A stretch of 64,000 nt of DNA from Raja brachyura (taxonomy: Eukaryota). The stretch covers positions 51,832,001-51,896,000 of the forward strand of contig OY740798.1 of assembly GCA_963514005.1 (NCBI GenBank), given 5' to 3'. The notes beneath the pieces were generated by a model that made no database searches, was not told where the DNA came from, and worked only from the letters and a program-made list of their open reading frames with translations. Of the stretch, positions 1 through 3,244 are shown piece by piece. The first letter of the stretch is position 1. Each line of letters opens with the position of its first letter. The position numbers and the translations under genes are program-made.

Positions 1-685
1 GGGCTGTGGTGAGCCCATTAGGCAACGCCCTATATTGCCACAGCTGATCCATCCAGATAAATTTTAAGAACCTTCTGTAATATTTTTTCATAGGTACGGT
101 ATAGTACGCATCCTGTAAATCAATGCATGCCATAAAGCACCCTTGTGAAATCAATGATTTGGCCGTTTCAAACGTGTCCATTTTAAAATGAGTATATGTT
201 ACAAAGTTATTCAGAGTGGTTAGATCAATAATGACTCTACAGCCTCCATCCCTCTTAGGTCTAGTAAAAATATTGGAAACAAATTCAACGGGCTCATGAA
301 CCGTTCTCTCTATGACCCCTTTCTGTTCCAACCTTAAAATTTCCTTATAGCCTACTGACTGTTCCGCAGCCGTTAGTTTGAAAGTACGACCCGGTCTATG
401 CTGAGGTGGAGGGATGTCCCCATTAATAAACTCAATACTATGGCCCTGAATATTCCGTAACACATACTCATCGCTGGTAATGTCACCCCATGCACCCGCA
501 AACAACCGCAAACGCCCACCAACATGTGGAGTTAAACAAAGAGAAAAAAGAGAACCAGATCGCCTCACCTCTGTGGTTACCGGCGGTCCCTGACACGAGT
601 GGGTGGTCGTGGAGGTGCTGGGTTGGTCTGAGGTCGTGGCGTCCTCATTTTCCACCTCGGCTTCTGCCGAGCCTGTCCTAAAAAA
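1..685 (-). CDS. DIRS ORF2 reverse transcriptase, N-terminal part (-1 frame relative to gag; not in ORF track)
   Basis: Manual translation: VGGRLRLFAGAW...FVSNIFTRPKRDGGCRVIIDLTTLN...HFKMDT...MACIDLQDAYYTVP...LKFIW...WQYRALPNGLTTA. The frame is open from 841 to the window edge. Confidence 0.92.
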
Positions 686-2310
686 GACCCCTGGGGTTGG
701 GGTGGCTGATATCGGTTTGGAGCTGGAGGGTAATTCCTGGTGGAAGTGCTGACAGACCCTCGTGAACGGCCAAGTGGGGCTTTCGAGCTTGATGGCGTGG
801 GGGCACTGTGAGAGCGCATGAGCCCCACGGTCTTGGCTTGTTCATCCAGCTCTCTGACCCTTTTGGAGAGGTCTTCGCCAAAGAGCTGACGGGGCGGCGG
901 CGGCGGCGGTGGTTTGCACAACCCTGCAAACTTAGGGTTGAGCGCTGGGCGGATGCTGTTTTTCCGAAAACCGTTTATTTCGTTTTGAGTAGCGCACAGA
1001 AGCGCCAGAGCATCCTCCTGGTCCAAATTAAGCTCCTCTCCGTCGACCGACCGCACAAAGGCAGTAATCCCGGCCATGAGGAGTTTCAGGATCCGCTGAA
1101 TTTTCAGCTCCTGCTGACGGATAGCCGCACTGATGTTGCCCCATATTGGCGTATTGACCACAGGCACGTTGAGGGAATTGCAGTTTGATGGAGCCTTGTG
1201 GCGGCTCATGGCTTGTAGTAGGACTTCCTCCTGAAGCTGGTGATTATTTAGGAAGTCCACTGTGGCTGCCAACTTCGTATTGATGGGAAGCCCCAACGAA
1301 TGAGGGGCTGCAAATTTGGTAGCCACATCGAGGAGGTCCTCCGCCGGTAATTCAGGCGGGGGTGGGATGGGGTCAACCACGGCCTCCTCGTCCTGCTGCT
1401 CCAGGCTGGTGTACGAAGCTGGTGATGAAGCCCTGTGCCTGTCGCTGCTGGATGCCTGTTGTTGTTGACCTTGTAGGAGAAGCTCCAGCAGCCGCTCCAT
1501 CCGGTCAATACGCCCTTCACCCTGAACACTCAGGTGGTCGGAGTCCTCCGGCTCTGAAAATTGGCCGGGGCTCCTGTCATCGGCCCGCACCTCGTCGAGG
1601 CCCTGCCGGTGCCGGTAGCTGTCGTCGACAGCCGCCGAGGCGAAACTGCGCGATTCCTGCACGGGCATGTTCAACCGCCTCCGTTTAGCGGGAGCGGAAG
1701 CCGTTGCCTCTATGGACAGATGCGGCATGGTGTCGGCACCAGCCGAAGCCTGGATACCTTGGGCCCGTGCAGGCTTGCCAGCTGCCCACATCGTGGACCT
1801 TGCCGACGCATGGTCTCGCCCACCCATCCATGGGGGGCTCGGCGACCGTGACGGGACCCCCAACTGACTCGTCCCGGCGTCGAAAGTTGGGGGGCGACGG
1901 CTGGACCTCACAGCTGCCCCGGGTCCCGTCCTGGAACCTGACCGCTCCCTGGCGGCAGGCAGAGCCTTAGCCCCAACAGGGTTAGGCTGCTGGGCTCCTG
2001 CCCTTCCCCTTCTCAGAGGGCTGCGTGAAACGGGCCGTGCAGCCGCACGGACCCTTCTGCTCGAAGCCGTCAGCAAGCCTGCTGACGACCTGGCTGCCAT
2101 GGCAGAGTCGTCCTGCTCTGGCGGCACACCACACTCCTCCTCGTCGGACTCCTCCGAGCTGTGGTGTGCGGGCGGGTCCGGACCTGAAAATACAGAGCTC
2201 ACCGACATCTCCGCCCTCGTTCCGGTCTGTGTTGCAGGTACCCCCGACAACTCTCGCTCCGGAACTGCTGGCCGGCGACTTCTCCTCGAACTCCGGCCTC
2301 TCCCATCCAT
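577..2310 (-). CDS. DIRS ORF1 (gag-like); likely start ATG at 2310 (MDGRGR...)
   Basis: Uninterrupted ORF with a disordered N-terminus and DIRS-gag-like C-terminus (PSNCNSLNVPVVNTPIW...LNPKFAGLC...LFGEDL). The track start at 2337 is a TTG. Confidence 0.8.
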   Translation of the reverse strand: MDGRGRSSRRSRRPAVPERELSGVPATQTGTRAEMSVSSVFSGPDPPAHHSSEESDEEECGVPPEQDDSAMAARSSAGLLTASSRRVRAAARPVSRSPLRRGRAGAQQPNPVGAKALPAARERSGSRTGPGAAVRSSRRPPTFDAGTSQLGVPSRSPSPPWMGGRDHASARSTMWAAGKPARAQGIQASAGADTMPHLSIEATASAPAKRRRLNMPVQESRSFASAAVDDSYRHRQGLDEVRADDRSPGQFSEPEDSDHLSVQGEGRIDRMERLLELLLQGQQQQASSSDRHRASSPASYTSLEQQDEEAVVDPIPPPPELPAEDLLDVATKFAAPHSLGLPINTKLAATVDFLNNHQLQEEVLLQAMSRHKAPSNCNSLNVPVVNTPIWGNISAAIRQQELKIQRILKLLMAGITAFVRSVDGEELNLDQEDALALLCATQNEINGFRKNSIRPALNPKFAGLCKPPPPPPPRQLFGEDLSKRVRELDEQAKTVGLMRSHSAPTPSSSKAPLGRSRGSVSTSTRNYPPAPNRYQPPQPQGSFLGQARQKPRWKMRTPRPQTNPAPPRPPTRVRDRR

Positions 2311-3244
2311 GTTCTTGCTGTGAAGCAAACACAACAAGAACCACCAACTTAAGGTAGCATACTTACCTGCGTGGTTCCCTTATGAAGGGCTGGCGAGGAG
2401 CTCGCTCCTCCGTCAGCCGTCGCAGCAACGCGATACGACGATATGTCGAGCATGCGCGCCGGCGGGCTCTTCACGAAGTCACTCACGTGACTCCGAAATG
2501 AAATTATGCCTACCTAAGAGATCGATCTTTTACATAGGCATAATTCTCCCATGCCTTTATTATTCATATTTAATTATTACTATGTTATAATTTTAGTCAG
2601 GGTAGGCAGTGCCTACCTTGCCTACCCTGACGGCACGTGCCTGTTGCGGTTAGCGGTGAAGTCGGGAGGAAAAATACTGTTTTTTCATACATTTTTTTGG
2701 ACCCCATTTCGCAACATGAAAAAGTTATTAAAGCCTCCCGAAAAACCAACTTTTAATATAAAAATAAACGATTTACCTTTTTTTCTCCCCTACGCAAAAT
2801 CCTTCCGGTTGTCTGTGCTCACGGCTTTTGAAGGTGATTTTTAAATTACTCTAGTTAATAAATAATTTAGAGTAATTTAAAAATACCTTCATTCATGAAA
2901 TGTCGGAGCGATTTTTCTTCCGCAACGAAATTGCCCGACATTCATTGATTATCCCTGCCTGTGGAAAAACGGCACTTTAAGCCCGCCCCCCTCTGAAAGG
3001 CGCCAAAGTCACGCACACGGGGAGCGGCAGAACTGCAGCGCTGCTCAAGGTAAGTTTTGTAACATACCTATTTACTGGTGTTTAGAATAGATGATTTGGG
3101 ATGTTCAGTTGTTTAAAATCTGCTTGGGTGAGACACTTAGTCAAAGATCACTGAAACAGGCCCTTCGGCCCAACTTGCCGTTGTCAACCAAGGTGCCCCA
3201 TCTAAACTAGTCCCACCTGCCCGTGATTGGCCCATTTCCATCAA

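Follow-up and report, generated by a model that had tools for sequence, protein, structure and literature searches.

The window, as we call the whole 64,000-nucleotide stretch of DNA analyzed here, contains part of an intact 5.3-kb DIRS1-like element with gag, reverse transcriptase (RT) and tyrosine-recombinase open reading frames. Within this element lies a candidate −1 ribosomal frameshift cassette, and the features of the element inside the window are as follows.

2442..2504, minus strand: left terminus and inverted terminal repeat; the element begins with ATT at 2504
2318..2366, minus strand: donor-like (CAG/GTAAGT) and acceptor-like motifs of the 5' leader, separated by 49 nt, noted as sequence motifs
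577..2310, minus strand: gag-like ORF1, 577 aa counted from its first ATG and ending in TAA (579-577), assigned by position
679..685, minus strand: slippery heptamer U UUU UUA in the gag register (S-F-L), read F-F-R in the RT frame; the register is conserved
672..678, minus strand: 7-nt spacer GGACAGG, read from the sequence
656..671, minus strand: 6-bp hairpin CUCGGC-AGAA-GCCGAG with an AGAA loop, a predicted stimulator private to the window family
2..841, minus strand: 5' part of the RT/RNase H/methylase ORF, in frame −1 with respect to gag; the rest lies left of the window

A Pfam domain search of the element matched RVT_1 (E = 6e-21), Phage_integrase (E = 3e-6) and Phage_int_SAM_4 (E = 3e-7), together with a Dam match (PF05869, E = 0.0016) that falls under the curated cut-off; an RNase H family was not among the Pfam matches listed for the element, and neither a protease nor a DDE integrase was found in this search. 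ORF1 gave no Pfam match and was called gag by position alone. The inverted terminal repeats are 88% identical over 68 nt, the halves of the internal complementary region are 100% identical over 37 and 79 nt, and the element ends in ATT with a 3-nt AAT junction overlap. An Rfam search of the window gave no match. The element adjoins a tandem array of ~7.4-kb units that are 99.6% identical (window 2502-33712) and carry an L1-like ORF fragment (7418, 22322, 29755); two further element copies, identically flanked, are found on C18 at distances of 44 and 94 kb, apparently duplicated along with the array. Donor- and acceptor-like leader motifs precede the gag ATG in all own-genome families seen; their 49-nt distance is short for an animal intron, and the RT-less copy L230, described below, retains the equivalent of leader segment 2318-2366 unspliced.

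The gag frame is open from 2379 to 577 on the minus strand and reads TCT TTT TTA across the heptamer (687-679). Re-reading the sequence placed every part of the cassette where the sequence-only reading had put it (TTTTTTA at 685-679, GGACAGG at 678-672 and the hairpin at 671-656), and recomputing the frames agreed with its claims that the RT frame is the −1 frame, is closed by TGA at 844-842 and has no ATG before position 181. This frame opens at 841, just past the TGA, and spans 731 aa from stop to stop; its first ATG is residue 221, inside the RT domain and beyond the start of the RVT_1 match at residue 195. The features of a canonical −1 signal present here are an in-register X XXY YYZ heptamer, an open −1 frame and a predicted structure at 7 nt, spacers of 5-9 nt between heptamer and structure being usual. 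The predicted hairpin energy is −10.9 to −11.3 kcal/mol, with z of about −2.5 in pieces of 29-39 nt and only −0.7 to −1.7 in longer pieces. Among 20,000 dinucleotide shuffles of the gag/RT overlap, 13% contained an in-register heptamer and 0.075% contained a heptamer followed by an equally stable hairpin, the threshold being the observed energy.

The 30-nt cassette occurs in 974 exact copies in its own genome, and all 40 scored matches to the window element are 99-100% identical, a measure by which the window family is young. Because its copies are so alike, conservation among them is uninformative, and our comparison covered related families. The sample of 111 loci comprised 30 own-genome loci located with a distant RT, the best 80 of 397 metagenome loci, and the window copy; it excludes the LAP2alpha-type DIRS elements (amphibian, fish), PAT and Dictyostelium DIRS-1. 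Matches extended up to the RT N-terminus in 102 of the 111 loci, which formed 41 clusters at 80% RT identity. After leaving out 7 clusters with a broken or short gag near the overlap, there remained 3 in which gag and RT share a frame and 31 with RT in the −1 frame, the latter being 38-61% identical to the window element in RT. The tree of these 34 rows is a quick version, and family counts are not independent trials, since the families share ancestry.

An alignment for an in-frame TTTTTTA had been suggested in the sequence-only reading, and this comparison recovered a strict heptamer in the gag register in 27 of the 31 families; for the other two registers the counts are 5 and 1. The in-register type is TTTTTTA in 20 families, AAAAAAC in 4 and GGGTTTT in 3; two of the four families that lack a strict heptamer have TTTTTTG, and two have nothing. 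We observed 32 in-register sites versus 4.3 expected from the gag-body rate, and synonymous resampling with the RT frame kept open gave an expectation of 8.8 families and a maximum of 20 in 200,000 draws. On the tree, 10 changes are needed among six slip-site labels, and L071 (AAAAAAC) is sister to L088 (TTTTTTA) with support of 100/100. Judged by these comparisons, the slip site is conserved across divergent families.

A [SP]FLG motif near the Gag C-terminus is likewise conserved in many families, and the heptamer could in principle be a by-product of this conserved F-L-G protein motif, or of RNA-polymerase slippage on the T-run. We regard both as highly improbable. Of the F-L pairs, 20 of 22 in overlaps are coded TTTTTTA, but 0 of 25 in gag bodies and 1 of 78 in RT bodies, and the families with fused frames retain P-F in codons that are non-slippery. 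Polymerase slippage would presumably have no need of the gag register, yet the register counts are 27, 5 and 1. In-frame fusion of gag and RT has at least two origins (L104/L117/L121 and L178/L183); fused ORFs of 1,053-1,063 aa in L195/L196 (C31 and C17 of the own genome) group with the L178/L183 origin, and the two own-genome fused lineages keep P-F but lack the U-run. A phase-0 donor is retained in L195, and no donor scored in the L178/L180 type.

Alternatively, RT and recombinase could be made without Gag, by termination-reinitiation or from a near-cognate start right after the gag stop. An ATG lies at the gag stop in 5 of 31 families. L035 and L049, and also RT-less copies, read TAA-CC-ATG, which places the ATG 5 nt downstream of the first base of the stop; in L074, L101 and L140, stop and ATG overlap. 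However, no ATG occurs at this position in the window family (ACA) or in its two nearest sister families (ACG, AGG), and the window family has nonetheless reached 974 exact cassette copies. An RT-frame ATG ahead of the conserved RT start is absent from 18 of the 31 families, including the window's, and reinitiation leaves the register-specific heptamer unexplained. We therefore consider it unlikely as the general route, although the RT-frame ATG in 13 of 31 families suggests that it may serve some of them.

Turning to the stimulator of the favored −1 frameshift, the sequence-only reading had expected a covarying stem among DIRS families. This expectation was not borne out: when 11 related own-genome sequences were compared, only 38% of cells were paired for the window hairpin, which was found in the window family only. 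The sister families share a 5-bp stem that is weaker and uses a different register (85.5% paired, with two pairs changed on both sides), and the covariation of this shared stem was not significant (219 of 500 shuffles were as high). The 50 nt following the slip site were more structured than their shuffles, with a mean z of −1.0, and 10 of 29 families below −1.65, compared to a mean of 0.0 and 1 of 29 families in an upstream control (p ~0.002 without correction for kinship). In the other 19 of 29 families, no structure after the site falls below z −1.65, and L070 and L077 are nearly devoid of it. These comparisons suggest that a stimulator probably exists but turns over fast; we put the odds that the window hairpin is the main stimulator of slippage at about even. 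Taken together, register and codon choice give strong comparative support to the proposed Gag-RT fusion via −1 frameshifting at U UUU UUA, whereas the predicted covarying stem failed. From these sequence comparisons, a −1 frameshift at the window cassette is very likely.

The sequence-only reading missed what appears to be a splice joining the same −1 frame to the recombinase, with two further features.

563..571, minus strand: predicted phase-0 donor GAG/GTGAGG, 11 nt downstream of the first base of the gag stop
from 568, minus strand: predicted intron of 1,916 nt to the acceptor TTGCAG/ at L031:5653, left of the window and in phase with the recombinase ORF

A donor motif in phase 0 of the RT frame was found past the gag stop in 30 of 34 families, compared to 10 in phase 1 and 0 in phase 2. 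Among control windows, the same motif occurs in 5 of 253 from gag and 28 of 463 from RT (2-6% background), and resampling gave 8.6 families expected and a maximum of 19. Across families, donors lie −1 to 44 nt from the gag stop, and nonsense-mediated decay is avoided when donors are within 50 nt of the stop. Such a strict donor phase implies that the −1 frame is translated from the heptamer to the donor, which provides independent support for the frameshift in ATG-less families. Tandem donors 4-5 nt apart (phases 0 and 1) follow the gag stop in L049, L068, L070, L077, L078, L117 and L121, and might permit an alternative out-of-frame splice.

At the other end of the predicted intron, all 26 clusters whose RT and recombinase are intact have a phase-0 acceptor-like site (against 15 and 17 for the remaining phases), although both donor and acceptor scores are simple home-made scores and, in phase 0, the acceptor score also matches 37% of control windows. 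In 25 of the 26 clusters, the recombinase can be read without a stop from this acceptor onward. Two acceptor sites alternate among families, an FPPF-S site and a downstream CAG site. The serine of FPPF-S is AGY in 16 of 17 cases, versus 25% in RT bodies, a pattern spotted post hoc, and 8 of 9 FPPF-C families (the window's included), which are without that AG, carry CAG at the start of recombinase homology. In RNA data, 0 reads of the one raw run aligned, and among the contigs listed from other runs, of unknown or guessed kind, there was no joint at the predicted sites, an outcome that speaks neither for nor against the splice. On the sequence evidence, we consider splicing of the pol region at the predicted sites likely.

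Splice motifs could also be read in a way that dispenses with frameshifting, with TTTTTTAG serving as the acceptor of a short exon that extends to the donor past the gag stop. Indeed, 17 of 29 heptamer sites read TTTTTTAG, and a donor-like motif is present in the 5' leader of own-genome families. At the other 12 of 29 sites, however, AG is missing after the run; acceptor-like sites in the overlap are distributed without phase bias (10/10/8) and are absent from 9 of 31 families, and 0 of 9 listed gag donors scoring at least 6 are in the required phase. The window leader ATG is out of phase and not conserved, and leader donors have neither a conserved ATG ahead of them nor a conserved phase. Searching by motif for genomic copies joined at this AG gave 4 matches, all of them local deletions or point changes. 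The phase counts and these four genomic matches lend no support to the use of TTTTTTAG as an acceptor supplying RT with a start, a case that the sequence-only reading had raised against its own proposal, and we find the short-exon reading scarcely plausible.

A different alternative accepts the frameshift but has the recombinase reached through a second −1 frameshift, at the RT/recombinase overlap, instead of splicing. This route was proposed for Ngaro by Poulter and Butler 2015, as quoted in a passage of PMC13003380. It fits the −1 position of recombinase relative to RT in 26 of 26 intact families, and at this overlap T TTA AAT stands in register in the window family. Nevertheless, in-register heptamers occur there in 5 of 26 families, versus 8 and 3 in the other registers, and a second frameshift does not account for the conserved donor and acceptor or for the existence of RT-less copies. 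We rate this route as very unlikely compared to splicing.

RT-less copies were found by searching the own genome for the predicted junction motif, which gave 2 matches, a wider search 90, and a reversed control 0. Those checked, namely 20 of the 87 matches of the commonest type plus L203/L204 and L230, are DIRS copies joined exactly from donor to acceptor; L203 and L204 count as one event (3.8 kb upstream in common, 96.5%). A junction match for a fused family (L229/L233) turned out not to be a DIRS and was set aside. L230, 3.4 kb long, is complete: it has both termini, gag and the heptamer, and its recombinase frame is open over 327 aa, but there is no RT. It clusters with the full-length L197 family (85/91) and separately from the large RT-less one, so that the same junction arose at least twice. 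The L197 family includes a full-length sister element with a 1.5-kb insertion, carrying a 443-aa open frame, inside the recombinase gene (L197:5944-7236, oriented). The large RT-less family (L209-L228) occupies ~87 places with copies that are 91-99% alike and non-autonomous, most of them decayed; the gag end runs straight into the shifted frame in 19 of 20 copies, and copies that have the site show a U-run shortened by 2 nt. In one RT-less copy, L222, a further deletion joins the 5' leader almost directly to the gag end. The RT-less junction lies on a 4-nt microhomology, AGGT, so deletion during reverse transcription could also create it; the recurrent identical join at conserved splice motifs favors reverse transcription of spliced RNA.

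These observations are consistent with an expression scheme in which most ribosomes would end at the gag TAA and yield Gag, while a smaller share would shift into the −1 frame at U UUU UUA. With unspliced RNA as the template, the slip would produce a Gag-RT/RNase H/methylase protein of ~1,220 aa by arithmetic; with the RT region removed by splicing (568 to L031:5653, both phase 0), the same slip would give a Gag-recombinase of ~910 aa. Slippage and how often it occurs, any part played by the hairpin, cellular splicing and the fusion proteins are elements of the scheme that we infer from sequence. We assign a probability of roughly 0.7 to the whole scheme, in which an intact DIRS1-like retrotransposon combines the slip site with a spliced pol. 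Its extension to DIRS1-like elements across animals is somewhat favored: one RNA and one frameshift would give Gag, Gag-RT and Gag-recombinase, the whole pol would be an optional intron with a donor at most 50 nt from the gag stop, and splicing would pick the enzyme. The spliced RNA would itself be retrotransposed, and one RT-less family would have hard-wired the slip through the 2-nt loss in the U-run, yielding an in-frame Gag-recombinase. If true, −1 frameshifting extends to another order of retrotransposons, and frameshifting and alternative splicing act in series to load two different enzymes onto Gag. The annotation of DIRS proteins would change accordingly, a class of non-autonomous RT-less copies would be explained, and the scheme supplies exact coordinates for both the frameshift and the splice.

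The element shares its gag, RT (with putative RNase H and methylase regions) and recombinase ORFs, inverted termini, internal complementary region, ATT ends and AAT junction with the DIRS1-like tyrosine-recombinase retrotransposons, as described in the parts consulted of PMC3266345 and PMC9210276. Those passages describe ORF overlaps for DIRS1-like elements and give no expression mechanism; none is given either in the parts consulted of PMC7192593, PMC9341512, PMC6681497, PMC1965478, PMC5009743 and PMC13003380, and the sections of PMC5009743 retrieved mention 'DIRS' 0 times. The passages searched thus held no explanation for the expression of the two start-less DIRS enzyme genes. Our literature search found no report of gag-RT frameshifting or pol splicing for DIRS1-like elements, although Poulter and Butler 2015, Goodwin and Poulter 2001 and a 2003 recoding survey may already propose frameshifting. 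Xenopus DIRS Gag has a LAP2alpha match in the excerpts consulted, unlike the Gag of the window element.

Among known frameshifting systems, PMC5009743, in the sections retrieved, identifies U_UUU_UUA as the HIV slip site, places A_AAA_AAC and G_GGU_UUU among the most shifty sites, and summarizes that 28 of 51 surveyed animal LTR retrotransposons use a −1 gag-pol frameshift. Animal LTR retrotransposons likewise have a heptamer-based −1 overlap, and some relatives a single fused ORF; their integrase is part of Pol, whereas the recombinase of the window element is a third ORF, predicted to be joined by removal of the pol intron. HIV-1 gag-pol has the same heptamer, followed by GG, a spacer in the usual range and a stem-loop, with pol in the −1 frame. 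In contrast to HIV-1, the window element is not a retrovirus, its 6-bp stem is not conserved between families, and its shifted frame apparently leads to two alternative enzymes. Copia-type elements splice out pol, and their spliced RNA, which is without RT, gives Gag alone. An RT-less spliced RNA would thus be common to both, but in the window element the recombinase would enter the shifted frame.
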